From the UHGV virus genome UHGV-0098134: a DNA stretch of 11,279 nucleotides; one strand, given 5' to 3'. Positions within the stretch are counted from its first letter, which is position 1. Each line of letters begins with the position of its first letter. This stretch comes from a virus. The notes under the pieces are model-generated. The model did not search any database and had not been told where the DNA came from. It was given only the letters and a program-made list of their open reading frames with translations. Of this stretch, positions 1 to 11,279 are shown piece after piece. Position numbers and translations under genes: made by a program.

Positions 1-49
1 TTCAGAAAACTAACCAGCGGGCCATCACCAATTTATAAGAGAAACAATT

Positions 50-2410
50 TTGGCCAACGATATTATTACCCAGCTTCAGGCGCGTAATGAGACGTTGACG
101 CAGGCAATAGCCCGTTACGGCTCACTCAACGCCAGAACATTGTTAGCTCTCTCTACTCAGCAAGCGACAGTTATCAAACTAACGCAGCGGCTTGCCGATT
201 CCGCTCTCCGCCTGGAGGAAAATAGCCGCAGCCGCGCTAATCTGATGGAGAAAACCCACACATTTGCCGGGCAATTTAGCAAAGTATTCAATGTTGAAGC
301 CCCCGACTGGAAGTTGCCGTATGAGTTCCAGGACAACATGGTCAATATGGCGACCAAAGGTGGGATGAATGATACAACTCGCGAGACGCTCAGCCTTAAT
401 CTGCGCGACTGGAGCATGGATTTTAACCAGCATCAGACCACCTTACAGAACGCAGCCCAAACGCTGATCGAAGGCAATTTGTCGTCGATACAGGATCTCA
501 ACCGTTATATGCCGGAGATCGCCAAAGCTGCCACCGCCACGCGCGAAAGTGCTGAAACATGGGCGAATGCCGCGCTCGCAACCCATGATCGACTGAATAT
601 TGTGCCAGAAAATTTCCACGTCGCGCAAAACATGATGTACGGCATTAGCAAAAGCGGTGGGCCTGCCGTTGCCGAGCAAACGCTGTGGATAGACAAATTT
701 GCAGGTAAAACCGGCGCTCAGGGTCTGGAAGGTATGGCTGAACTGACTGCCGCCATGCAGATCGCCATGAAAAACGGAGCCAGCGCCAGTGCGGCGGCGG
801 AGAATTTCGACCACTTTCTGCAAACCACCTTTTCGAAAAAGACCGATAACTGGTTCGCCAGCCAGGGCGTCGATCTGCAAGGCTCTCTGCTTGAACATCA
901 GCAAAACGGTATGGGTGTTAGCGAAGCCATGACTCATATCGTACAAATGCAGCTTGAGAAGATGAATCCGGCGATCCTAGACACCTTCAAACGCACTATG
1001 CAGATTGAAGATTTATCTGCTCGCAGCAATGCGCTGCAATCGATGGTGACGCAATTTAATCTGGGCGAAATGTTCGGCGATGCGCAAACGGTGGAATTCC
1101 TGGCACCTATGCTGGCGAATATGGAGGAATATCGCCAGTTAAAAACCTCTGCCATGCAAGCCACCAGCAAGAATCTGATTGATGCCGACTTTTCTGCGCA
1201 AATGGCCTCGCCCATTGAACAGACTAAAGCGTTACAGCTGGCGTTAAATGATTTATGGCTCAGCATTGGCTTGCAATTAATGCCGCTGATTGGCGAGCTG
1301 GCACAAAGCCTTACGCCGGTTATTCGTCAGTTCAGCGCCTGGCTACGTGAGCACCCGACACTGGTGCAAAACATCGCGAAAATCGTCGGGGCGATTTGGC
1401 TGTTTAACGGTGCGCTGAATGTTTTAAAGCTGGGCGCGAACCTCATCACCTCGCCGTTTATTCGTCTGGTCGATATCTTCCTGAAAGTCAAGGCAAGTCT
1501 GGCGCTCACAGGCGGGGCAAGTAAGATGCTATCAGCGGTTAAGTCATTGGGTGGCGGCGCAAAATGGCTAATGCAACTGCTTGGTCGTGGCCTGATTGGC
1601 GCACTGAAACAGGTAGGTCAGACCGTCTTCTGGTTGGGTAGGGTTTTATTGATGAATCCCATTGGTCTGGTCATCACTGCGATTGCGGGCGCTGCTTATC
1701 TGATTTGTCGCAACTGGGAGCCTATCTCAAGGTTCTTTTCGACCATCTGGCAACGTATCACCACGGCCTTTGACGGCGGCATTGCAGGAATTTGTCGGTT
1801 GATTCTCGACTGGTCACCGCTGGAGTTGTTCTATAGCGCCTTTTCCAGTGTGATGAATTGGTTTGGTGTCGAGATGCCTGCAAGTTTTAGCGAGTTCGGC
1901 AGCAATCTTCTGGGCAGTCTGGTTGACGGCATAATGAATGCCTTCCCCGCTCTGAAAGGCATTATTGATCAGGTAAAAAACGTCATCCCAGACTGGCTAA
2001 AAACCACGATGGGTATTAGTACAGAAGGATCGGCTACAGCTATTACAAGCACGACTAATACCGCATCCGTCTCCCCCGCGACCGTTGTTCCAGGCGTTGC
2101 CGGTGCGATTTTAACGCCTCCAGTGGGCAAACAACTCGCGCCATCCAGCAAAACGACAACGCCGCCATCGGCACCAGCGGCAAAACCCGCGTCGGCCTCT
2201 TTACCTGGTAAATCCGTAACCAAAGCGGCGACGCTACCTTCCCGTTCCTCAGGAAAAGTTCAGGTGAATTTTTCGCCACAAATTACCGCGCAGAGTAACG
2301 GACAAAACACCACTAAAGAGATTCAGAACGTGTTGACGATGAGTAAACGCGAACTGGAAAGAATGATTAACGATGTAATGGCGCAGCAGCAGCGCCGGGG
2401 GTATGCCTGA
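50..2410 (+). CDS. phage tail tape measure protein (P2 gpT-like)
   Basis: 786-aa ORF. Helical N-terminal half, central hydrophobic/Gly-rich segments typical of tape measure proteins, then a C-terminal Ser/Thr/Pro/Ala-rich tract. Lies immediately upstream of gpU/gpX/gpD-like genes. Start is TTG at 50, the first canonical start after an in-frame TAA at 11-13, so the true start is uncertain (next in-frame ATG at 245). Stop TGA 2408-2410 overlaps the next ATG. Confidence 0.8.
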   Translation: MANDIITQLQARNETLTQAIARYGSLNARTLLALSTQQATVIKLTQRLADSALRLEENSRSRANLMEKTHTFAGQFSKVFNVEAPDWKLPYEFQDNMVNMATKGGMNDTTRETLSLNLRDWSMDFNQHQTTLQNAAQTLIEGNLSSIQDLNRYMPEIAKAATATRESAETWANAALATHDRLNIVPENFHVAQNMMYGISKSGGPAVAEQTLWIDKFAGKTGAQGLEGMAELTAAMQIAMKNGASASAAAENFDHFLQTTFSKKTDNWFASQGVDLQGSLLEHQQNGMGVSEAMTHIVQMQLEKMNPAILDTFKRTMQIEDLSARSNALQSMVTQFNLGEMFGDAQTVEFLAPMLANMEEYRQLKTSAMQATSKNLIDADFSAQMASPIEQTKALQLALNDLWLSIGLQLMPLIGELAQSLTPVIRQFSAWLREHPTLVQNIAKIVGAIWLFNGALNVLKLGANLITSPFIRLVDIFLKVKASLALTGGASKMLSAVKSLGGGAKWLMQLLGRGLIGALKQVGQTVFWLGRVLLMNPIGLVITAIAGAAYLICRNWEPISRFFSTIWQRITTAFDGGIAGICRLILDWSPLELFYSAFSSVMNWFGVEMPASFSEFGSNLLGSLVDGIMNAFPALKGIIDQVKNVIPDWLKTTMGISTEGSATAITSTTNTASVSPATVVPGVAGAILTPPVGKQLAPSSKTTTPPSAPAAKPASASLPGKSVTKAATLPSRSSGKVQVNFSPQITAQSNGQNTTKEIQNVLTMSKRELERMINDVMAQQQRRGYA

Positions 2411-3363
2411 TGTATGCCGTTTTAGGAGAGATTGAATTTAAAGTTGTCACGTTCTGGGATGGCTTTAAGAGCACAATGGGCGTGGATTACGCCACACATG
2501 CCCGTATTGAAGGCAAACCTGGCGTACAGTTTATTGGCGATAAGCTGGATATGCTGGCGCTGGAATTTTCCCTGCACAGCCAGTTTTGCCAACCCACAAC
2601 AGAGCTGAATCGACTGCGTGAAGCCATGCTCGCCCACAAAGCAATGGCGCTGGTGTTTGGCAACGGAGATTATCGCGGCTGGTTTGTAATTACAGAGTTA
2701 ACCGCCACTCACCAGCACACCGATCCCTGGGGCAATGTCATTGCCCAAAGCGGAACAATGTCGCTCCAGGAGTATACCGGCGATCCGAAAAACCCACTGC
2801 TGCCCCCGGCAATTACCACCCAGGAGCCTAATATCGAGGAAAAGGCGAGCGATTTTCCGAATAAGGAGGAGTCCTGGTTAGATCAGATATTGAACGCCAT
2901 TGAAGAAGGTATGCGCAAAGCCAAAGAGATGCTCGATGAACTGGCGCAATCCATTGAAGATATTAAAAAAACAGTGGCAAAAGTGAAAGCACTGATTAAA
3001 GAGGCCAAAGCGTTAAAAGAAAAGTGTGAAAAGATAATTACGTCGTTGAAAAAGACAATCGACGCCATCGAAACCCTGTTTAAACAGCCGATGGATCTGC
3101 AAACGCTGGCAGGACTCCCAAAAGCGTTGTCGGCGCAGATTAAAGCTTTACTGGGTAACATGCCAGGTATCCGGGACTGCGCCAATGACGCCAGTACGCT
3201 GGTTGACCATGCTCAGGCGCTTTTCGATGACATTACCAGCGACATCGCCGAAACGACGTTTGATAAAGCAGCAACGTTGGTTGATCAGGCACGAACAACG
3301 GTACAACGAACCACTCCAGCAGTGAGTCAGTTTGCTGCCGCAACCATTACGAGGAGCTGGTGA
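2410..3363 (+). CDS. tail protein with gpU-like N-terminal domain and long C-terminal coiled-coil extension
   Basis: 317-aa ORF. The N-terminal ~140 aa (MYAVLGEIEF...GKPGVQFIGDKLDMLALEFSLH...GDYRGWFVITEL) resemble the P2 gpU family as recalled. The C-terminal ~170 aa is Lys/Glu/Ala-rich with a heptad-like pattern (EESWLDQILNAIEEGMRKAKEMLDELAQSIEDIKKTVAKVKALIKEAKALKEK...). ATG 2410 overlaps the upstream stop (TGATG). Confidence 0.65.
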   Translation: MYAVLGEIEFKVVTFWDGFKSTMGVDYATHARIEGKPGVQFIGDKLDMLALEFSLHSQFCQPTTELNRLREAMLAHKAMALVFGNGDYRGWFVITELTATHQHTDPWGNVIAQSGTMSLQEYTGDPKNPLLPPAITTQEPNIEEKASDFPNKEESWLDQILNAIEEGMRKAKEMLDELAQSIEDIKKTVAKVKALIKEAKALKEKCEKIITSLKKTIDAIETLFKQPMDLQTLAGLPKALSAQIKALLGNMPGIRDCANDASTLVDHAQALFDDITSDIAETTFDKAATLVDQARTTVQRTTPAVSQFAAATITRSW

Positions 3364-3572
3364 TGCGATACCTTGAACATATCACCACCGACGGCGAACG
3401 CTGGGATAATCTGGCATGGCATTACTATGGCGATGCGCTGGCTTATGAACGCATTATCGCCGCCAATCCACATGTCGCCATTTACCCGGTACTACCTTCC
3501 GGTATTCAGCTCATCATTCCGGTCATTTCCGTTAATAAAACCTTATCGGAGATCCCACCATGGCTGAGATGA
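3363..3572 (+). CDS. phage tail protein X (gpX-like, LysM-type domain)
   Basis: About 70-aa ORF with a LysM-like pattern (GERWDNLAWHYYGD...ANP...LPSGIQLIIP) like P2 gpX. GAGGAG at 3351-3356 sits 6 nt before ATG 3363, which overlaps the upstream TGA (TGATG). The ORF track starts it 3 nt earlier at GTG 3360. Confidence 0.8.
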   Translation: MRYLEHITTDGERWDNLAWHYYGDALAYERIIAANPHVAIYPVLPSGIQLIIPVISVNKTLSEIPPWLR

Positions 3573-4600
3573 GCGTAACTGGTGGCGTCTTTGCCACGCT
3601 CGCGCCCATTTTTACCCTCTGGTATGGGCATAAAGATATCACTTATGACATCACACCCTATGTCATCAGCATCCGTTACCACGACAGCATCAAAAACGAG
3701 TCGGATACCATCGCAATTACACTGGATGACACAGATGGACGCTGGATAAAAGAGTGGTATCCCGGCAAAGGCGATACGCTGGCGCTGCATATAGGTTATC
3801 AGGGGGAAAAGCTGCTCGATTGTGGCCAGTATATTATTGATAAAATTGATATTTCAGCGCCACCTTCCACGGTAAATATTGATGGCATCGCCACTTCCGT
3901 CAATCAGGCGCTGCGCACCCGTAACAGCCAGGGCTTTGAAGAAACGACGCTTTCGGCGATCGCCAGCCGTATTGCCCAAACGCACGGTCTGAAACTGGTG
4001 GGCAAAATCGAGTCGCTCACCATCGACCGGGTAACGCAGTATGGTGAAACCGATGTCGGATTTCTCAAACGTATGGCCAGTGAATATGGTTATGCCGTAA
4101 AAGTGACGACAAAAGAGCTGATTTTTTCACATTTACCCACGCTGCGCTGCCTGGCACCGGTAAAAAAGATCGATCGCAAAGACGTTTCGCATTTCACCTT
4201 CAAAGATACCATTAACCGGATCTACAAGAACGCCACCGTACAGCATCAAAATAGTAAGAAAAAAGAACTGGTTATCTACACTCACGACAGCCAGCAAAAA
4301 CCATCTGTCCGTGGAGTCGGCACTAGTGCCGACACGCTAAAACTGAACAGTCGGGCGACGGACGTTGGCGCAGCACAGGCAAAGGCTAACGCTGCACTCG
4401 ACAGCCACAACGAATATCAGCAAACCGGAACGCTCACAATGATGGGCTGCCCGGAACTGACGGCGGGTAATAAAATCGAGCTAACCGATTTTGGTGTGCT
4501 TTCCGGTCAGTGGCTGATTGATAAATCTACTCACAGTTTTGTGCGCAGCGGCTATACCACCGAAATCGACGTTTCGCGCGGGCCTGCGACCAGCCAGTAA
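3560..4600 (+). CDS. phage late control gene D protein / baseplate hub (gpD-like)
   Basis: 346-aa ORF of gpD/Mu gp44-like size and character, placed after gpX as in P2-type tails. Overlaps gpX by 13 nt. An alternative ATG at 3569 forms an ATGA overlap with the gpX stop. Confidence 0.8.
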   Translation: MAEMSVTGGVFATLAPIFTLWYGHKDITYDITPYVISIRYHDSIKNESDTIAITLDDTDGRWIKEWYPGKGDTLALHIGYQGEKLLDCGQYIIDKIDISAPPSTVNIDGIATSVNQALRTRNSQGFEETTLSAIASRIAQTHGLKLVGKIESLTIDRVTQYGETDVGFLKRMASEYGYAVKVTTKELIFSHLPTLRCLAPVKKIDRKDVSHFTFKDTINRIYKNATVQHQNSKKKELVIYTHDSQQKPSVRGVGTSADTLKLNSRATDVGAAQAKANAALDSHNEYQQTGTLTMMGCPELTAGNKIELTDFGVLSGQWLIDKSTHSFVRSGYTTEIDVSRGPATSQ

Positions 4601-4609
4601 GGAGGCGAT

Positions 4610-5311
4610 ATGAAAGGAGTAACCCGACAAACGGGGATTATCAGCGATATTGACGAAACCAGTATTCGGGTACGGGTCACTCTACCAGAGTGTGACAATC
4701 TGAAGAGCAACTGGCTTGCGGTACTTCAACGCAATTCCCAGGACAATAAAGACTACTGGCTACCGGATATGGGCGAGCAAGTGGAAGTTCTGCTGGACGA
4801 TAACGGTGAAGATGGCGTGGTGCTGGGTGCCGTTTATTCTACGGTTGACACCGCGCCTGTAGCCTCGCGCGACAAACGTTACGTCCAGTTTTCTGATGGC
4901 GCAGCGTTTGAATATGACCGCAGCACGCACCAGCTGACGATCAACGGCGGTATCGAGAAAATCGTGATTGAGGTTATCAACGGTACCTGCCTGACATCGC
5001 CCAACGTTGAGATTAAAGCCCAACAGGTCACCGTGACTTCCGATACCGTCGATGTTAAAGCGACCGATGTCAGCATCGACGCCACTAAGGTCGAGGTTAA
5101 AGCAGCAGCAGTGACGGTAGATGCGCCCATGAGCACCTTTACTGGCAACGTCACGGTAATGAAAAAACTCACCTGGCTTGGCGGGATGGCAAGAAGTGGA
5201 GGCATCGGTAACGCAGCCACGATAACCGGCAATGTCAACGTGATCGGCAACGTTCAGGCCAGCGGCGCATTGCAGGACAGCGGTGGCAACTCCAACCACC
5301 ATTCACACTGA
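4610..5311 (+). CDS. baseplate assembly protein V / central spike (gpV-like)
   Basis: 233-aa ORF. An N-terminal OB-fold-like region is followed by a run of alternating beta-strand residues (VEIKAQQVTVTSDTVDVKATDVSIDATKVEVKAAAVTVDA) typical of a spike beta-helix, and a His-rich C-terminus (NSNHHSH). Strong RBS AAGGAGG 7 nt upstream of the ATG. Confidence 0.8.
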   Translation: MKGVTRQTGIISDIDETSIRVRVTLPECDNLKSNWLAVLQRNSQDNKDYWLPDMGEQVEVLLDDNGEDGVVLGAVYSTVDTAPVASRDKRYVQFSDGAAFEYDRSTHQLTINGGIEKIVIEVINGTCLTSPNVEIKAQQVTVTSDTVDVKATDVSIDATKVEVKAAAVTVDAPMSTFTGNVTVMKKLTWLGGMARSGGIGNAATITGNVNVIGNVQASGALQDSGGNSNHHSH

Positions 5312-5316
5312 CTTTT

Positions 5317-5346
5317 AACCCGCCTGATGGCGGGTTTTCTCTTTTT
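5317..5346 (+). terminator. putative intrinsic terminator between gpV and gpW
   Basis: Perfect 8-bp inverted repeat AACCCGCC (5317-5324) / GGCGGGTT (5329-5336) with a 4-nt loop TGAT, followed by the T-rich tract TTCTCTTTTT. It begins 6 nt after the gpV stop. Confidence 0.55.
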
Positions 5347-5409
5347 AATCAATCAGTTTTCTAAATCGCTTTAATATCTCCACAGCCCGTTCAGGGCGAA
5401 AATACCCTC

Positions 5410-5769
5410 ATGAACACAAAAACACGCCCCTCAACGCTGCACTGGCAACCGGCCTTGCAGCGGCCTGAAGAATACGTCTGCGGGCTGGATGATATTCACC
5501 AGGCGATACACATCATTCTGCGCACACCGCGCGGCAGTGATCCTCACAGACCGCTGTTTGGCAGCAACTTGTGGCACTACATCGATTACCCCATCGAGCG
5601 GGCAATCCCGCATGTGGTACGGGAGTCGGTGGAAGCCATCCGCCAGTGGGAACCGCGCTGTCGGTTGCTGAAGGTGACACCAGTAATCGACGGTGAACAT
5701 CTGACGTTACGTGTGCAATGGCGCGCCGCTGACGGCGTTATCAACTCAACGGAGGTGTTATGGCGATAG
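5410..5769 (+). CDS. baseplate wedge protein W (GPW/gp25 family)
   Basis: 119-aa ORF of gp25/GPW size with a conserved-looking core (HQAIHIILRTPRGSDPHRPLFGSNLWHYID...AIRQWEPRCRL). The stop overlaps the downstream ATG, and GGAGG at 5751-5755 serves the next gene. Confidence 0.8.
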   Translation: MNTKTRPSTLHWQPALQRPEEYVCGLDDIHQAIHIILRTPRGSDPHRPLFGSNLWHYIDYPIERAIPHVVRESVEAIRQWEPRCRLLKVTPVIDGEHLTLRVQWRAADGVINSTEVLWR

Positions 5770-6868
5770 CCGAACCCAATTTTATTGACCGCGATCCTGC
5801 GCAAATTACCAGTGAGATGATTGCGCAATACGAAGATGCCAGTGGTAAAAAACTCTATCCGGCACAGGCTGAGCGGTTGCTCATCGACCTGTTTGCCTAT
5901 CGTGAAAACCTTGTACGCATCGCCATTCAGGAAGCGGCGAAACAAAACCTGGTCGCGTATTCCCGCGCGCCAATGCTGGATTATTTAGGGGAGTTGGTGG
6001 GAGTTCACCGTTTGCCTGCGCAGCCTGCAAAAACGACGTTGCAGTTTTCAGTGCGTATACCAGCAATATCCTGATTCCCCAGGGGACGCGGGCCAGTGCC
6101 TCTGATAGCGTGATGTTCGCCACCGATGAAGATGTTCTGCTTCCGGCCAGGAGTTTGCATATCGCCGTTCCTGCCACCAGCCTCGCAGCAGGTGAACAGG
6201 GCAACGGCTGGCAGCCTGCACAAATTAGCACACTGGTCGACAGGATTGGTCATTATGACATCAACGTAACCAACCTGACTGCGTCAACGGGCGGCTGCGG
6301 TGAAGAGAGCGATGACGCATTGCGCCAGCGTATCCAACTGGCACCAGAAAGCTTTAGTAATGCGGGCAGCTATGGCGCATACCGCTTTCATACGCTTTCT
6401 GTTAGCCAGTCGATTATTGACGTTGCAGTACTGGGGCCGGACGAGGGATTGCCAGAAGGCTGCGTGGAGATCTACCCGCTAACCCTGAACGGACTGCCAG
6501 GAATAGAACTGCTCGCGCAAATCGAACAGGAGGTTAGCAAGGAGAAAAAACGTCCGCTGACCGACAAAGTGAGTGCGAAATGCGCTCTTCGAGTGCCGTA
6601 TGAGATCCGTGCTCAGCTAACGCTGTTTACCACCGCCGATCAGGAGACAACGCTGGCTGCGGCGCGTAAAGCGATTAGCCTCTGGACGCAACAGCGGCAG
6701 AAACATCTGGGGCAGGACATTGTGCCAAACCAGATAATCAAAGTGTTACAGGTCGATGGCGTCTATGACGTTGCGCTGAATATGCCTACAAAACGTATTT
6801 TGCAGGCGCATGAATGGGCGGAATGCACTGCAATAGACGTCACGATTGCCGGAGTCAGCGATGGATAA
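5760..6868 (+). pseudogene. baseplate protein J (gpJ-like), interrupted by a frameshift
   Basis: The N-terminal 104 codons (5760-6074) end at TGA 6072-6074. The rest of the gpJ-like sequence continues in another frame, which is open from well upstream of 6000 through 6868 (ORF track starts it at GTG 6110). Frame 0 reads ...AKTTLQFSVRIPAIS*, and the other frame reads ...YTSNILIPQGTRASASDSVMFATDEDVLL... and later LRQRIQLAPESFSNAGSYGAYRFH, matching gpJ as recalled. A 1-nt deletion or 2-nt insertion near 6050-6068 is implied. Confidence 0.7.
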
Positions 6869-7577
6869 ATTGCTGCCACCGCCGCCGCTTGCCAGCGATG
6901 AGCGTTTTTCGATTCTGGCAAACATCGCCGCCGAGCGTTTTGCCCAACTCGATCTTACGGCGTTGATGGTTTATCTGGTCGACCTGGTTGATGCTTCGGC
7001 ATTACCAGCCCTTGCAGAACAATTTCACGTTCAGGGGCTGGAAGGTTGGTTATTTACCACCGATGAGCGGGAGAAACGCGAGTTAATTAAACAAGCCATT
7101 GAACTGCATAAATATAAAGGAACAATTTGGGCGGTACGGCGGGTGCTGGAAATACTTTCCTTACCCGGAACTATTTCAGAATGGTTTGAATATGGGGGAA
7201 GGGCTTATTTTTTTAAGGTAAATATTACACTAGAGGAAAAAGGATTAAATGAAGATGAATTCAATGCACTTATCACATTAATTCATGAATATAAAAATGT
7301 TCGTTCAAAGCTGGAAAGCATTGTTATTTGGCTTATTAATCGAAGCCCAATACCAGTTATTGGCAGCGCCATGCAAGGAGGGGAAGTCATTACAGTATTG
7401 CCTCCTGTTGCAGAAAGCCTCAGCCAGTCATCAGGAATATTTTTAGCGACGGGTTATTGTGTGGAGGAATATATTCAACTACTACCTTATCAACCCGATC
7501 GACTTACACAATCCCAACCGATGAAGGTCGGCACAGGATACTGGAGCACCGAAATTATGTCTGTATATCCGGAGTAA
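6861..7577 (+). CDS. baseplate/tail protein I (gpI-like)
   Basis: ORF with a gpI-like motif ([18 protein letters not shown], compare the P2 gpI core as recalled). Preferred start is ATG 6861 with GGAG at 6851-6854. The ORF track begins at TTG 6846. Overlaps the end of gpJ. Confidence 0.75.
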
Positions 7578-7579
7578 TA

Positions 7580-9160
7580 ATGGCAAGTGAATTTTTTACA
7601 ATATTAACTGCTGCTGGCAAAGCCAAAATTGCCTCAGCACTGGCCGAGCAAAAACAGATCCGTCTGCAAACTATGGTAGTTGGCGACGGTAATGGTAAAT
7701 ATATCGAACCGACAGAAAGTCAGACCAAAGTAGTCCATGAGGTCTGGCGTGGTCAGCTCAATACATTAAAAATTGCGCCAGATAATCCGGCCTGGGTTAT
7801 CGCAGAAGCGATTATTCCCGAACAAGTCGGAGGCTGGTATGTACGCGAAGTTGGGTTACTGGATACCGACGGCACGCTGGTCGCTATTGGTAAATTTCCG
7901 GAAACCTATAAGCCACGATTACCTGCGGGGGCCAGTAAGCAAATCGTTATACGCGCGGTCATGGAAGTCACCAATACAGACGCGGTGACGCTTTTGATCG
8001 ACCCTTCAGTCGTTGTGGCAACCAGGGAATATGTCGATGATGCGTTGAAAACACATCAGCAATCACGAAATCATCCTGATGCGACGCTGACACAAAAAGG
8101 TTTTACGCAGCTCAGTAATGCAACTAATAGCGATGATGAGACTAAAGCAGCCACGCCAAAAGCGGTAAAAACGGCATATGACCTGGCAAATAGCAAAGCC
8201 GCAACCAGTCATACTCATGCCTGGAATCAGATTACTGGTATCCCTGATGGTACACTGACGCAGAAAGGAGTCGTTAAACTTAACAACACAACAAATAGCA
8301 CCAGTACAACGGAAGCTGCAACGCCAAGTGCTGTTAAAGCAGCGATGGACAAGGCTATTGCTGCGGCACCGTCCAGCCATACCCATGCCTGGGGGCAAAT
8401 AACAGGTATCCCCGACGGTACGCTGACACAAAAAGGGGTCGTGAAACTTAATAATGCGACCAACAGCACCAGTACGACGGAAGCTGCAACGCCGAACGCG
8501 GTTAAGGCAGCGATGGATAAGGCTATTGCTGCGGAAAGCTGTCCTGTAGGGATGCCTATACCCTGGCCATCTGATTCTGTACCTTCAGGCTACGCTCTGA
8601 TGACTGGTCAGACATTTAATAAAACCTCCTATCCCAAACTGGCAATTGCATATCCATCTGGCGTTATTCCTGATATGCGCGGATGGATAATTAAAGGAAA
8701 ACCATCCAGTGGGCGCGCTATATTATCTACTGAACTGGATGGAGTTAAATCACATAACCATACGGGCAGTATTTCTAGTACCAATTTAGGGACAATAACA
8801 TCTACCTCTACGGACTTAGGAACAAAAACTACAGCTTCATTTAATCATGGAAGTAGAAATACAAGCACATCTGGAGAACATACACACCGAATACCAACTG
8901 ATGGTGCAGAAGGTAAAGATGGACCGTCTTTATGGAACAGCCCCAATTCAGATGAGAACTACAGAGAACCTACTGAGTCTGCTGGTAGTCATTATCATAG
9001 TATTACGATTGGCGCCCATGCACATACAATCGCACTGGGAAGTCATACACATAATATTGTGTTAGGTACACATAATCACTCAATTATCATCAATAACACT
9101 GGCAATACAGAAAATACTGTTAAAAACATTGCATTCAATTATATTGTGAGGCTTGCATGA
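7580..9160 (+). CDS. tail fibre protein (P2 gpH/Mu S-like N-terminus, lambda Stf-like C-terminal tip)
   Basis: The N-terminus [18 protein letters not shown]...VGDGNG...EVWRG is the conserved baseplate-attachment domain of P2/Mu-type fibres. The middle carries phage tail-fibre repeats (TLTQKG..L.NATNS...AATP.AVK). The C-terminus (PIPWPSD.VPSGY.LM.GQ.F.K..YPKLA.AYPSG..PDMRGW.IKGKP...HxH...[18 protein letters not shown]) closely matches the lambda Stf C-terminus as recalled. Start chosen at ATG 7580 (GGAG at 7571-7574), while the ORF track extends in frame to 7457 inside gpI. Confidence 0.9.
8210..8545 (+). repeat. in-frame tandem duplication (2 x 168 bp) of the tail-fibre repeat unit
   Basis: Two consecutive 56-codon units, both beginning CAT AC[T/C] CAT GCC TGG (8210 and 8378). 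They encode nearly identical peptides (HTHAW[N/G][20 protein letters not shown][T/A][12 protein letters not shown][S/N][12 protein letters not shown]..) but differ at many synonymous sites. A more diverged third copy lies upstream at about 8078-8209. Confidence 0.75.
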
Positions 9161-9864
9161 ATACTTTTACTTTTTCCGATAACGCACAAATTTTATCTGT
9201 TTTTAATTTTTCACCAGACACACAAGAATTTATTGGTGAGTCCAATGTATATATAGCACCAAACACTGGACTACCGAATTACTGCACATTAACACCACCA
9301 CCACAAAAAATTGCAGGTTTTACTTCTATATGGTCAATTAATAAATGGGAACTTATTGAAGATCATCGAGGCCAAACTGTTTATAACAAAGTTGATGGCA
9401 GCCAGATTATTATTAATAAATTGGGTCAATTGCCTGAAACTGTCACCATCATTTCCCCTACCAGTACTTTTGAGCGTTGGGATGGCGAAAAATGGCAGCC
9501 ATCAATTGATGATGCTAAACAGGCGAAATGTGCCGAAATCAAAACATTGCGCGACTCCATCACTACCGACTACATCATCATCAACGACAATTACTTCCAC
9601 AGTGATACAAGCAGCCGCATCCAACAACTCTCACTCACAAAAATGGGAGCGGAGAAAAAAATTCCGCCAGGTTTAATGTGGAAAACTAAAAATAATGGTC
9701 TGACTGAGTTAACCAACGAAATCGCTGCCCAGTTTGAATCCGTCACAATGGATCACGATATACGCTTGTTTGCCAACGCCCAACGCCATATCGCGGCGGT
9801 GGAAGCTCTGGACGATATTCAGTCGGTACTCGACTACGATTATTCAACAGGCTGGCAACCATGA
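9157..9864 (+). CDS. tail fibre assembly chaperone (Tfa; lambda Tfa-like N-terminal domain)
   Basis: 235-aa ORF. The N-terminal region ([17 protein letters not shown]...[11 protein letters not shown]) matches the conserved Tfa N-terminal domain as recalled from lambda Tfa (FIGEGDAYIPPHTGLP...LVEDHRGKTVY). ATG 9157 overlaps the fibre stop (ATGA). Confidence 0.85.
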
Positions 9865-10316
9865 GTAAAACTACAGTCTGGCTCGCTTGCTATAAAGGGC
9901 GAACAGAGCACCGGGTTATTGCGAGACTGGCTGACTGGCTTACACGCAAAATCACTCGCGGCAGTTATTCCCACTGTGAATTAGCCGTAGCACATGGAGA
10001 AAAGAGTTACCTTTGTTACTCCGCCTCTCTGCGCGATCGAGGCGTTCGTGGAAAGATAATGCCTTTACCGCCAGACAAGTGGGATATGCTGCCGCTCCAG
10101 GTCAGCCTTCAGGATGTAGAAGCGTTTTTCCGTAAACATGATGGCAAAAAATACGACTGGCGTGGAGCCTTAGGAATTATCACCGGCAATAAAGAACAGC
10201 GCGATCGCCTGTTTTGTAGCGAATTTTGTGCCGAATTTCTGCAATTAAAAGAAAGTTGGCGCTATTCCCCAAACCACTTGTACGCTTTAGTTAACAGTTG
10301 GCAATATCAACCATAA
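9861..10316 (+). CDS. hypothetical protein; possible permuted papain-like (LRAT/NlpC-P60-type) Cys/His enzyme
   Basis: 151-aa ORF translationally coupled to Tfa (ATGA overlap at 9861-9864), with host-like GC. The motifs GSYSHCELAVAHG (His) and, about 80 residues later, LFCSEFCAEF (Cys) resemble the YxHWAxY ... NCEHF arrangement of LRAT-like thiol acyltransferases/hydrolases. The family assignment is tentative. Confidence 0.55.
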   Translation: MSKTTVWLACYKGRTEHRVIARLADWLTRKITRGSYSHCELAVAHGEKSYLCYSASLRDRGVRGKIMPLPPDKWDMLPLQVSLQDVEAFFRKHDGKKYDWRGALGIITGNKEQRDRLFCSEFCAEFLQLKESWRYSPNHLYALVNSWQYQP

Positions 10317-10321
10317 ACTAC

Positions 10322-10346
10322 GCCGGGCTTCAAGCCCGGCTTTAAT
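10322..10346 (+). terminator. putative intrinsic terminator after the tail-fibre operon
   Basis: GC-rich perfect inverted repeat GCCGGGC (10322-10328) / GCCCGGC (10334-10340) with loop TTCAA, followed by TTTAAT. The U-tract is short, so it is marginal. Starts 6 nt after the TAA of the 151-aa ORF. Confidence 0.45.
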
Positions 10347-10460
10347 CAGGCTGTATATTCCATCACAAACAAAGCACATGATTATAAATATTCACAGTAA
10401 TTATATTTCCATATTAACCATCCACTGAGTGAATATAGAAGAATTTAAATACAATAACTA

Positions 10461-10488
10461 TTGCATTGTAAATTACATCAAATATAGT
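10461..10488 (+). promoter_or_regulatory. candidate sigma70-type promoter for the downstream low-GC gene
   Basis: TTGCAT (10461-10466), a 16-bp spacer, then TATAGT (10483-10488), about 40 nt upstream of ATG 10530 with AGGGA as a possible RBS. The region is very AT-rich, so chance matches are likely. Confidence 0.3.
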
Positions 10489-10529
10489 TCACTACTTATA
10501 TATTTTGCTAATCGCTACAGGGAAATTAC

Positions 10530-11258
10530 ATGTTTATTGTCTCAGTTCTCAGACAAAGTAAGGATTTCACTATTAAACATGCACAATGGCTTCACCAGCA
10601 GCTGGATGGGTATAATTCCATTTGCATGACGGATGCTTCAGAAATCAAAGGGGTTCAAACCACTCCATTACTGTATAATTGGCCAGGATGGTGGGCAAAA
10701 TTAGAGCTATTTAATCCCGAACATCCTGTTATCGGGAATGAAGATATACTTTATATTGATATTGATACTGTAATCGTCGGTGATATTACACAGTTTACTA
10801 AAATGAAAAAAGTAACATTACTGAACGACTTCTCGCAGCATGGTTCCAATGCTGCTCCTGCGACTGGAATAATGTTCATTCCTGCGGACGCCAAAAAACT
10901 TGTCTGGGAAGAGTTTATGAGATCGCCTGAAACTGAAATAAATTCAACCAGAAAGCCGCCATATCATGGGGATCAGGGATTTATCGGCAGAGTATGTCAT
11001 GACGCTGAAAGATGGCAGGATATTTTTCCAGGACAAATTATCAGTTACAAAGCGAATATAGCGACGCCTAAAATGATAGGCTTTAATCCTGACTTACACG
11101 ATGGTAAAGCAAACGGAGAATTGCCATCGGATGCAAAAATTGTATGTTTTCACGGTTCACCTCGTCCCTGGAACACAGCTCTCCACTGGGTTCCAGGTTT
11201 CAGCATAAAAAACACACTCTGCAGCAAATTTAAACAGCTCAAATATTCTCTTCGGTAA
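10530..11258 (+). CDS. putative nucleotide-sugar glycosyltransferase (GT-A fold, GT8-like motifs); low-GC cargo/moron gene
   Basis: 242-aa ORF with clearly lower GC than the tail genes. Motifs line up with GT8 enzymes such as LgtC and glycogenin as recalled: WAKLELF...EDILYIDIDTVIVGDI (hydrophobic strand plus DxD), GDQGFIG (compare QDQDILN), and C-terminal KIVCFHGSPRPW (compare HxxGxxKPW). Separated from the tail operon by a terminator and an AT-rich promoter-like region. Confidence 0.5.
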   Translation: MFIVSVLRQSKDFTIKHAQWLHQQLDGYNSICMTDASEIKGVQTTPLLYNWPGWWAKLELFNPEHPVIGNEDILYIDIDTVIVGDITQFTKMKKVTLLNDFSQHGSNAAPATGIMFIPADAKKLVWEEFMRSPETEINSTRKPPYHGDQGFIGRVCHDAERWQDIFPGQIISYKANIATPKMIGFNPDLHDGKANGELPSDAKIVCFHGSPRPWNTALHWVPGFSIKNTLCSKFKQLKYSLR

Positions 11259-11279
11259 AAAACTTTTTTATTGGAAGGG

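Follow-up and report, generated by a model that had tools for sequence, protein, structure and literature searches.

The tail-fibre gene at positions 7580-9160 of the virus genome UHGV-0098134, whose whole stretch of 11,279 nucleotides (nt) will be called the window, encodes a composite protein. A conserved N-terminal domain and a repeat shaft give way at nt 8534 to a tip of the gp37/Stf type that is complete, with collar, needle and head. This tip and the N-terminal domain of the tail-fibre assembly protein, or helper, encoded by the next gene form one unit of about 1 kb, which is different or unrelated in other alleles and has a GC content at third codon positions (GC3) of 0.23-0.27. The overall explanation that we regard as very probable is a modular fibre, in which the unit at 8535-9555 is swapped by recombination, the particle likely being a tailocin. 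The 11.3-kb window is identical to metagenome scaffold L009 (the source scaffold) and contains the distal portion of a contractile-tail gene set, with every gene on the plus strand (Table 1). The set is part of an element of about 17-20 kb, which has a BcepMu-like tail and lies between lysC and yjbD/rluF.

A composite fibre with an exchangeable tip

The domains of the fibre were assigned with Pfam, the tip was compared with the PDB by phmmer, 50,697 phage records were searched in translation with the two halves, and direct pairwise comparisons were made. The N-terminal domain, which presumably attaches the fibre to the baseplate, matches PF12571, and over residues 25-206 the fibre is 51% identical to that of Peduovirus P2_4A7b. 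The genes of gpI (PF09684) and gpJ (PF04865) lie directly upstream, as for a P2 gpH-type fibre. An earlier description of this DNA made without database searches (the sequence-only reading) had called the N-terminus P2 gpH/Mu S-type. The P2 part of this assignment was borne out, the Mu part was not: Mu S (5YVQ, 8JU3) matches the repeat region at residues 155-211 only, with an E value of about 6e-6. The N-terminal domain (residues 1-149) is 99.7% identical to that of Escherichia coli IAI39. In the shaft a 168-bp tandem duplication at 8205-8534 (two copies, 82% matches by TRF) encodes two Phage_fiber_2 units, and its end coincides with the left cassette border. The number of fibre repeats varies by allele, Salmonella Infantis having one unit fewer and E. 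coli S10 more.

Residues 317-526 align end to end with residues 25-242 of 2XGF, the solved tip of T4 gp37 (E value 4.9e-67), and a C-terminal sequence of 16 residues is identical in the two tips. We take this sequence match as decisive for the predicted nature of the tip. The limits of the tip domains of T4 gp37 were taken from PMC6957217; the Collar domain (PF07484) was recognised with an E value of 8.8e-11 and 42 bits against a cutoff of 24. The likeness of the tip to lambda Stf, which the sequence-only reading had stated, was confirmed by 50.4% identity over 244 residues (E value 7e-76), and tip identities are 62.5% to lambdoid phage Chlobot, 58.6% to Peduovirus P2_4A7b and 56-57% to gp37 of T4-like phages. 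Searched separately, the two halves indeed have different relatives, which are Salmonella, Yersinia, Enterobacter and P2-like fibres for residues 1-290, and T4 gp37, lambdoid side tail fibres (stf), a Citrobacter phage and Peduovirus P2_4A7b for residues 319-526. The limits of the open reading frame (ORF) are annotated identically in E. coli relatives, and the exact protein occurs in at least 46 blocks of public assemblies.

The assembly protein consists of a lambda Tfa-type N-terminal half and a C-terminal DUF4376 half (residues 119-226, nt 9511-9834). DUF4376, recognised by Pfam with an E value of 3.9e-13, is conserved across all alleles at the locus. Caudo_TAP (PF02413) matches with an E value of 6e-5 and over profile positions 1-64 of 131 only, Caudo_TAP_N is on record for the identical protein, and the N-terminal domain matches phrog_105 (E value 1.6e-40). 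Over residues 1-115 identity is 40% to lambda Tfa, 47-49% to the proteins of P2_4A7b and Chlobot and 26% to the T4-like helper; the phages that match this domain are those that carry a gp37-type tip. The usual C-terminal domain of Tfa was not found, the DUF4376 half matching no Tfa of lambda, P2 or Chlobot, only its own lineage. The combination of a Tfa-type domain with DUF4376 is a recognised phage family, phrog_1807, which is without a solved structure. In the model that North et al. (2019) reportedly put forward for Mu Tfa, the N-terminal domain of the helper is the tip-specific part, and this would be why the right border of the cassette lies in the middle of the assembly gene.

Of 5426 complete E. 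coli genomes, 196-198 (the count varying with the query) have the element in the same place on the chromosome, and sister alleles occupy this position in Salmonella, Superficieibacter and Phytobacter as well as in E. coli. Identity to IAI39 is 98-100% over 4701-8700, 35-66% over 8801-9100, 76-83% over 9101-9600 and 90-95% over 9601-9900. In cross-allele blastn comparisons with E. coli S10 and with the Salmonella phage S.Kent contig, homology extends through the shaft to 8511-8534 and is found again from 9550-9560 onwards. In the interval both sister alleles have a glycine-rich tip (...GFVKISW) that is unrelated to the tip of the window copy, and their assembly proteins begin with a different N-terminal domain, which is shorter; their DUF4376 domains are 72-89% identical to that of the window copy. 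The loci of Superficieibacter, Phytobacter and a contig from an assembly labelled Bacillota (L019) have kept W, J, I, the fibre N-terminus, the repeats and orf151, and are without the gp37-type tip and without the matching N-terminal domain of the helper. Across the 196 E. coli genomes the breakpoints recur, on the left at about 8796, 8865 and 8875, and on the right at 8995, 9065 and 9560-9573. The tip and helper N-terminal modules also co-occur in lambdoid, P2-like and T4-like phages.

The two halves of the fibre are therefore not confined to joint occurrence in one lineage: one N-terminal part, at one locus, is joined to unrelated tips. These allele breakpoints, and the replacement between conserved flanks at a single locus, support the suggestion of the sequence-only reading that a receptor-binding cassette was acquired by recombination. 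Its outline of the cassette (8690-9470) correctly included the end of the fibre gene and the start of the assembly gene; the unit itself is larger, extending from 8535 to 9555.

Within the gp37-type cassette a shorter segment varies further. We aligned five gp37-type alleles (window, IAI39, CFSAN061771, GF130 and Salmonella Infantis). The four E. coli alleles are near-identical up to about residue 400, and all five are hypervariable, with insertions and deletions, between about residues 402 and 475; the returning His-x-His (HxH) strands are moderately variable and the last 14 residues invariant. Identity of the head to IAI39 is only 35-59% at 8801-9000. The six HxH motifs lie at residues 392, 434, 471, 480, 489 and 498; T4 has seven, the second of which is represented here by a single His. 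The T4 gp37 needle contains seven iron sites (PMC6957217), and the HxH motifs of the fibre are predicted to be metal-binding sites. No blastn homology to IAI39 was detected at 8875-8994, between the motifs at 8879 and 8990. Allele breakpoints fall at 8850-8875, 8995 and 9065, and the return of homology at 9065 adjoins the motif at 9071, the HxH motifs forming conserved islands at which alleles cease to be homologous or become so again. For T-even adhesins the published pattern is exchange at conserved motifs or close to them (Tetart et al. 1996, 1998, cited in PMC3157838). By mutagenesis, the lipopolysaccharide (LPS) and OmpC contacts of T4 were located at residues 933-953, at the needle tip (PMC6957217); through the 2XGF alignment these residues map to residues 438-458 of the fibre (8891-8953), in the centre of the stretch without homology. 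Among sequenced phages nothing closely resembles the head segment (best match 48%), and because it is so diverged, the receptor cannot be named.

The tail-only element between lysC and yjbD

Six copies of the element were examined: those of E. coli IAI39, S10, CFSAN061771, JAQDRR01 and the source scaffold, and that of Salmonella Infantis. At the regulator/lysis end all six have genes for a Mor-family activator, a holin, an SLT transglycosylase and a small membrane protein, followed in the E. coli copies by a Mu gp37-family protein and a 65-residue ORF. The tail genes follow in the order sheath, tube, chaperone, tape measure, gpU, X, D, V, W, J, I, fibre, assembly protein and orf151, and the far end carries, on the opposite strand, genes for a nucleotidyltransferase (RlaP) and a slipin. 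Salmonella Infantis has the element at the same site and in the same order, corresponding to STM4198-STM4219 in LT2 numbering. The sheath protein is 71-74% identical to that of BcepMu-like transposable phages. Between lysC and yjbD none of the six copies has genes for capsid, portal, terminase, transposase, integrase, repressor or replication. A complete contractile-tail set without head genes was found in IAI39, S10, CFSAN061771, JAQDRR01 and Salmonella Infantis; the window copy, as described below, is not intact. The cargo between lysC and the Mor gene varies, IAI39 having a ClbS-family protein and ISEc53 (L004 4347-6104) and JAQDRR01 a protein with a zeta-toxin domain (L008 3534-4463).

The regulator, the lysis cassette and the headless tail, kept under purifying selection at one locus in two genera, would together make up the signature of an R-type tailocin, as far as can be inferred from gene content and divergence. 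The specificity of the tip would then more likely be the target range of a tail-only particle than the range of hosts for infection. Possibly, and we put this forward as a tentative extension, the element is an undescribed R-type tailocin of Enterobacteriaceae, which was derived from a BcepMu-like phage, has resided between lysC and yjbD since before the split of E. coli and Salmonella and owes the diversity of its killing spectrum to receptor-binding cassettes (tip and helper N-terminal domain) taken in from coliphages; the neighbouring genes for sugar modification (orf242 in the window, gtrABC in Salmonella) might protect the producer. Our literature search found no report of particles, killing or function for the element or for STM4198-STM4219; STM4200 is mentioned as a polymerase chain reaction marker of Typhimurium only. 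The published 'tailocin' of E. coli ST131 was considered as the same element and rejected, being a P2-like intact prophage.

Two findings weigh against this interpretation, and both speak for a rival reading, in which the element is a decaying prophage remnant without present function and the variation of its fibre, left over from past recombination among phages, makes no difference to the cell. Just 196 of the 5426 complete E. coli genomes have the element, about 96% being without it, and some copies have broken genes. The gpJ gene in the window has, relative to near-identical (99.9%) genomes and IAI39, a 7-nt deletion (GGTCGTC) at about 6047-6050 causing a frameshift; in the source scaffold the tube gene, which lies upstream of the window, is split into ORFs of 79 and 69 residues; and in JAQDRR01 both tube and gpD genes are split. 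We consider decay unlikely as an account of the element in general. Neither IAI39 nor Salmonella Infantis has a broken copy of any of the 19 genes compared, and the ratio of nonsynonymous to synonymous divergence (dN/dS) between these two is 0.035-0.29 for the 16 genes with unsaturated synonymous divergence (dS). The dS values of the element, 0.6-2.0, are comparable to those of the adjoining host genes lysC, pgi and rluF. The elements of S10 and CFSAN061771 are fully intact and have different cassettes, and the regulator and lysis cassette have been retained. For the window copy itself the situation is different: because its gpJ is frameshifted, it is probably inactive and makes no functional tails, though the fibre, assembly protein and orf151 genes are intact.

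Base composition and the proposed exchange

The composition of the fibre and assembly genes is not uniform; a sliding-window analysis showed a clear drop in both GC and GC3. The tract at 8690-9470, which the sequence-only reading had described as visibly AT-rich, has a GC content of 0.369, compared with 0.48-0.49 upstream in the fibre gene (7580-8536) and 0.462 in the rest of the assembly gene (9471-9864). Its fibre part (8690-9160) has 0.386 and its assembly-gene part (9157-9470) 0.341. Windows of the same size within 1-7000 have a mean of 0.517 (standard deviation 0.019, minimum 0.476), and values as low as that of the tract occur in 0.4% of all same-size windows of the sequence. GC3 in the tract is 0.15-0.33, and GC at codon positions 1 and 2 stays nearly flat. 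Since these positions hardly shift, amino-acid content is not the cause of the drop. A maximum-likelihood fit of two change points to GC3 across the fibre and assembly genes gave segments of 0.43, 0.23 and 0.52 with breaks at about 8644 and 9444; twice the gain in log likelihood (2*dLL) was 42.5, a value reached in none of 200 permutations. The breaks are about 50 nt or less from the limits estimated by eye, and the cassette encloses the low-GC tract.

By domain, GC3 is 0.27 in the tip and 0.25 in the helper N-terminal domain of the window, with 0.43 in the rest of the fibre and 0.51 in the DUF4376 part. In the Salmonella Infantis copy the corresponding values are 0.28 for the tip, 0.32 for the helper domain and 0.61 for the rest of the fibre. 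Tip and helper domain have 0.35 and 0.22 in a T4-like phage and 0.47 and 0.42 in lambda. It must be noted that the N-terminal part of the fibre, at about 0.43, is itself lower than the upstream tail genes (0.51-0.67), and that further troughs of GC3 occur at 7100-7500, in the C-terminal part of gpI (0.17-0.33, a similar depth), and at 10200-10800.

The low GC could, in principle, reflect a local mutational or selective bias in a diversifying, weakly expressed segment of a fibre that was otherwise inherited whole, and several results that tell against recombination are in line with this. The unrelated glycine-rich cassettes are low as well (GC3 0.22-0.25 in their tips and 0.28-0.33 in their helper N-terminal domains), so that both unrelated cassette types at the locus are AT-rich at third positions (0.22-0.28). 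The gp37-type cassettes of E. coli and Salmonella are both AT-rich despite deep divergence, their low GC3 being shared in spite of saturated synonymous divergence, and the 0.42-0.47 of lambda shows that composition is not tied to the module. Low GC may thus be in part a standing property of a fast-evolving region rather than the mark of one recent import; as the unrelated tips share it, the signal marks the swappable slot and not one type of cassette. Moreover, no near-identical DNA donor was found, the best phage tip having 62.5% protein identity and the best match to the head segment 48%. The exact tip allele was not found in the 5426 complete E. coli genomes (best 83-85% over part of it), and megablast of 5400-11279 against phages returned Salmonella relatives only, with matches ending at 7369, and no close phage. 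For want of such a donor, the direction and date of transfer are matters of inference. Nevertheless, we regard local bias as an improbable explanation. Tips and helper N-terminal domains that are not homologous lie between flanks of 89-99% identity, for which point mutation is insufficient, and the gp37-type module is common to lambdoid, P2-like and T4-like phages (50-62%) whose fibres have N-terminal halves that are unrelated or similar in the repeats only.

In the modular explanation the unit would be exchanged by homologous recombination, with the conserved sequence EAATPxAVKAAxDKA, in which the last fibre repeat ends, serving as the left anchor and the beginning of the conserved DUF4376 domain as the right anchor. 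The donors would belong to an AT-richer phage gene pool, and replacement would be so frequent that the sequence never takes on the local composition. A shorter exchange inside the gp37-type cassette, from HxH to HxH, may swap the receptor-contacting head. The N-terminal domain of the assembly protein would move with the tip because, on the model for Mu Tfa, it recognises the tip during folding of the trimer. The tip, presumably an intertwined trimer, is expected to set which cell surface is bound, with a receptor of the OmpC or LPS type by analogy with T4 and lambda. If the particle is a headless contractile tail, i.e. an R-type tailocin descended from a BcepMu-like transposable phage, the cassette would set its killing spectrum.

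The sequence-only reading had instead assumed the fibre of an ordinary temperate phage, with the cassette determining the host range of infection, and on this point it is probably mistaken: all homologous modules do come from phages and the sheath resembles that of infecting BcepMu-like phages, but with head, packaging, replication and integration genes missing from six independent copies with the same boundaries, and with synonymous divergence between E. coli and Salmonella like that of neighbouring host genes, this reading is very improbable.

Known systems and neighbouring genes

The modular exchange of receptor-binding tips and chaperone domains has been known since the comparisons of P2, Mu, lambda and T4 made in the 1980s-1990s, and the classic cases of mosaicism in the fibres of P2, Mu, P1 and lambda were reportedly described by Haggard-Ljungquist et al. 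(1992) and Sandmeier (1994). The present fibre is a clear case of this exchange, with well-defined borders. Tip swapping in a fibre is textbook biology, and there is little new in it for the fibre itself; the tail-only, cross-genus context is a more novel lead than the cassette. As in T4 gp37 and lambda Stf, the whole collar-needle-head tip is present and an overlapping gene for a Tfa-type helper comes next. Unlike them, the fibre has 526 residues (774 in lambda Stf and 1026 in T4 gp37), a P2 gpH-type N-terminus, one HxH motif fewer and a head with at most 48% identity to any relative, and its helper differs from lambda Tfa in having DUF4376 as its C-terminal half. The tip-plus-helper unit is already known to move between lambda-like and T4-like phages, the C-terminus of T4 g37 together with g38 being from a lambda-like source and the exchanges occurring at conserved motifs (PMC3157838).

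With P2 gpH/gpG the locus shares a conserved PF12571 N-terminal domain and an interchangeable C-terminal receptor-binding part, followed by the cognate assembly gene, and in Peduovirus P2_4A7b the related N-terminus (51%) and a gp37-type tip (59%) even occur together. Unlike that of P2, the tail is BcepMu-like, with the order sheath-tube-tape measure-gpU-X-D-V-W-J-I-fibre. In contrast to Mu and P1, the fibre locus has no invertible segment. An inversion switch of the Mu G-segment or Cin type was rejected, as neither an invertase nor inverted repeats were present: 6800-11279 contains no inverted repeats of at least 18 nt, and there is no invertase or second copy of the tip downstream.

The closest parallels are bacteriocins. 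For the Mu-derived syringacin of Pseudomonas syringae, 'localized recombination' at the fibre locus has reportedly been described by Hockett (2015) and Baltrus (2019). Like the syringacin and the carotovoricin of Pectobacterium, the element occupies a fixed site and combines a tail, without a head, with a lysis cassette; in all of them the fibre N-terminus is conserved and the C-terminus and chaperone are variable. Compared by gene list, carotovoricin (holin, lytic transglycosylase, sheath, tube, assembly protein, tape measure, GpU-family protein, baseplate, fibre) agrees with the order of the element. The differences from carotovoricin are that the element lacks an Ein-type invertase and has cassettes that are common to coliphage families. 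Carotovoricin diversifies through recombination confined to the fibre C-terminus and the chaperone (PMC13195805).

The natural alleles mark exact fusion points that are tolerated, namely where the last fibre repeat ends, where DUF4376 begins and at the HxH motifs, and could serve as a guide for engineering fibres of new specificity. If the intact copies make particles, E. coli and Salmonella would possess a native contractile bacteriocin with naturally swappable targeting, which would bear on how strains compete in the gut and on the design of narrow-spectrum antibacterials.

Table 1. Coordinates of genes, domains and other features in the 11,279-nt window
Feature	Position (nt)	Strand	Evidence
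Tape measure protein	50-2410	+	
gpU-like protein	2410-3363	+	
X	3360-3572	+	
D	3560-4600	+	
V	4610-5311	+	
W	5410-5769	+	
J, in two ORFs	5760-6074 and 6110-6868	+	Pfam PF04865
Baseplate protein gpI, 238 residues	6861-7577	+	Pfam Tail_P2_I (PF09684), E value 6e-33
Tail-fibre gene, ATG start, 526 residues plus stop	7580-9160	+	
N-terminal P2 gpH-type domain, residues 1-149	7580-8026	+	Phage_tail_fib PF12571, E value 2.2e-59
Shaft, three Phage_fiber_2 repeats, residues 155-318	8042-8533	+	PF03406, E value 7e-52, 3 stretches
Exchangeable cassette: fibre tip (residues 319-526) and assembly-protein N-terminal domain (residues 1 to ~133)	8535-9555	+	blastn breakpoints, protein alignments
Collar domain, residues 324-370, equal to the first part of T4 gp37 D10	8549-8689	+	PF07484
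Low-GC3 tract	8644-9444	+	Change-point fit, sliding GC3
Six His-x-His motifs, at 8753, 8879, 8990, 9017, 9044 and 9071	8753-9079	+	Motif scan
Hypervariable distal needle and head, residues 402-475	8783-9004	+	Five-allele alignment
Tail-fibre assembly protein, 235 residues	9157-9864	+	
orf151, 151 residues	9861-10316	+	
orf242, glycosyltransferase-like accessory gene	10530-11258	+	

Upstream of the fibre gene, gpI is variable in its C-terminal part: the segment at about 7369-7508 is low in GC and has a 28-residue insertion, and S10, Salmonella and S.Kent lose homology to the window at 7364-7369 and regain it at 7508-7529. The 238-residue form of gpI is paired with a fibre N-terminal domain of the type MASEFF, the 210-residue form, found in S10, Salmonella and other genera, with MDNEFY. 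This pairing suggests co-variation of two interacting parts.

Downstream, the stop codon of the fibre gene overlaps the start of the assembly gene (ATGA, in GCATGA), and the assembly gene overlaps orf151 in the same way at 9861-9864, which suggests that the three genes are translationally coupled. In every allele orf151 follows the assembly gene with an overlapping start and is 75-95% identical to the window copy. Homologues with 44-50% identity lie downstream of Tfa-like genes in Neisseriaceae (Neisseria, Kingella, Eikenella) and Pasteurellaceae (Pasteurella). A scan of genome contigs with orf151 yielded three enterobacterial loci and distant homologues, and peptide patterns picked up no E. 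coli or Salmonella genome. The protein matches phrog_1128 only, with none in Pfam, NCBIfam or the PDB. The assembly protein, too, had no credible match when its sequence was searched against the PDB, and NCBIfam had no match for the fibre, the assembly protein or orf242.

The last gene, orf242, has a low GC content, matches phrog_1962 (E value 9e-99) and follows orf151 in the window allele only. No match to it, nor to any of 10300-11279, was found in the 5426 complete E. coli genomes. Its product is 78.5% identical to that of an ORF in the S.Kent contig and 55.7% identical to a glycosyltransferase encoded beside stf/tfa in the lambdoid phage Chlobot. The Salmonella copy of the element carries, between V and W, a gtrABC operon for O-antigen glucosylation (L018 12586-15421). 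We may speculate that such genes, by modifying surface sugars, protect the producer from its own particle.

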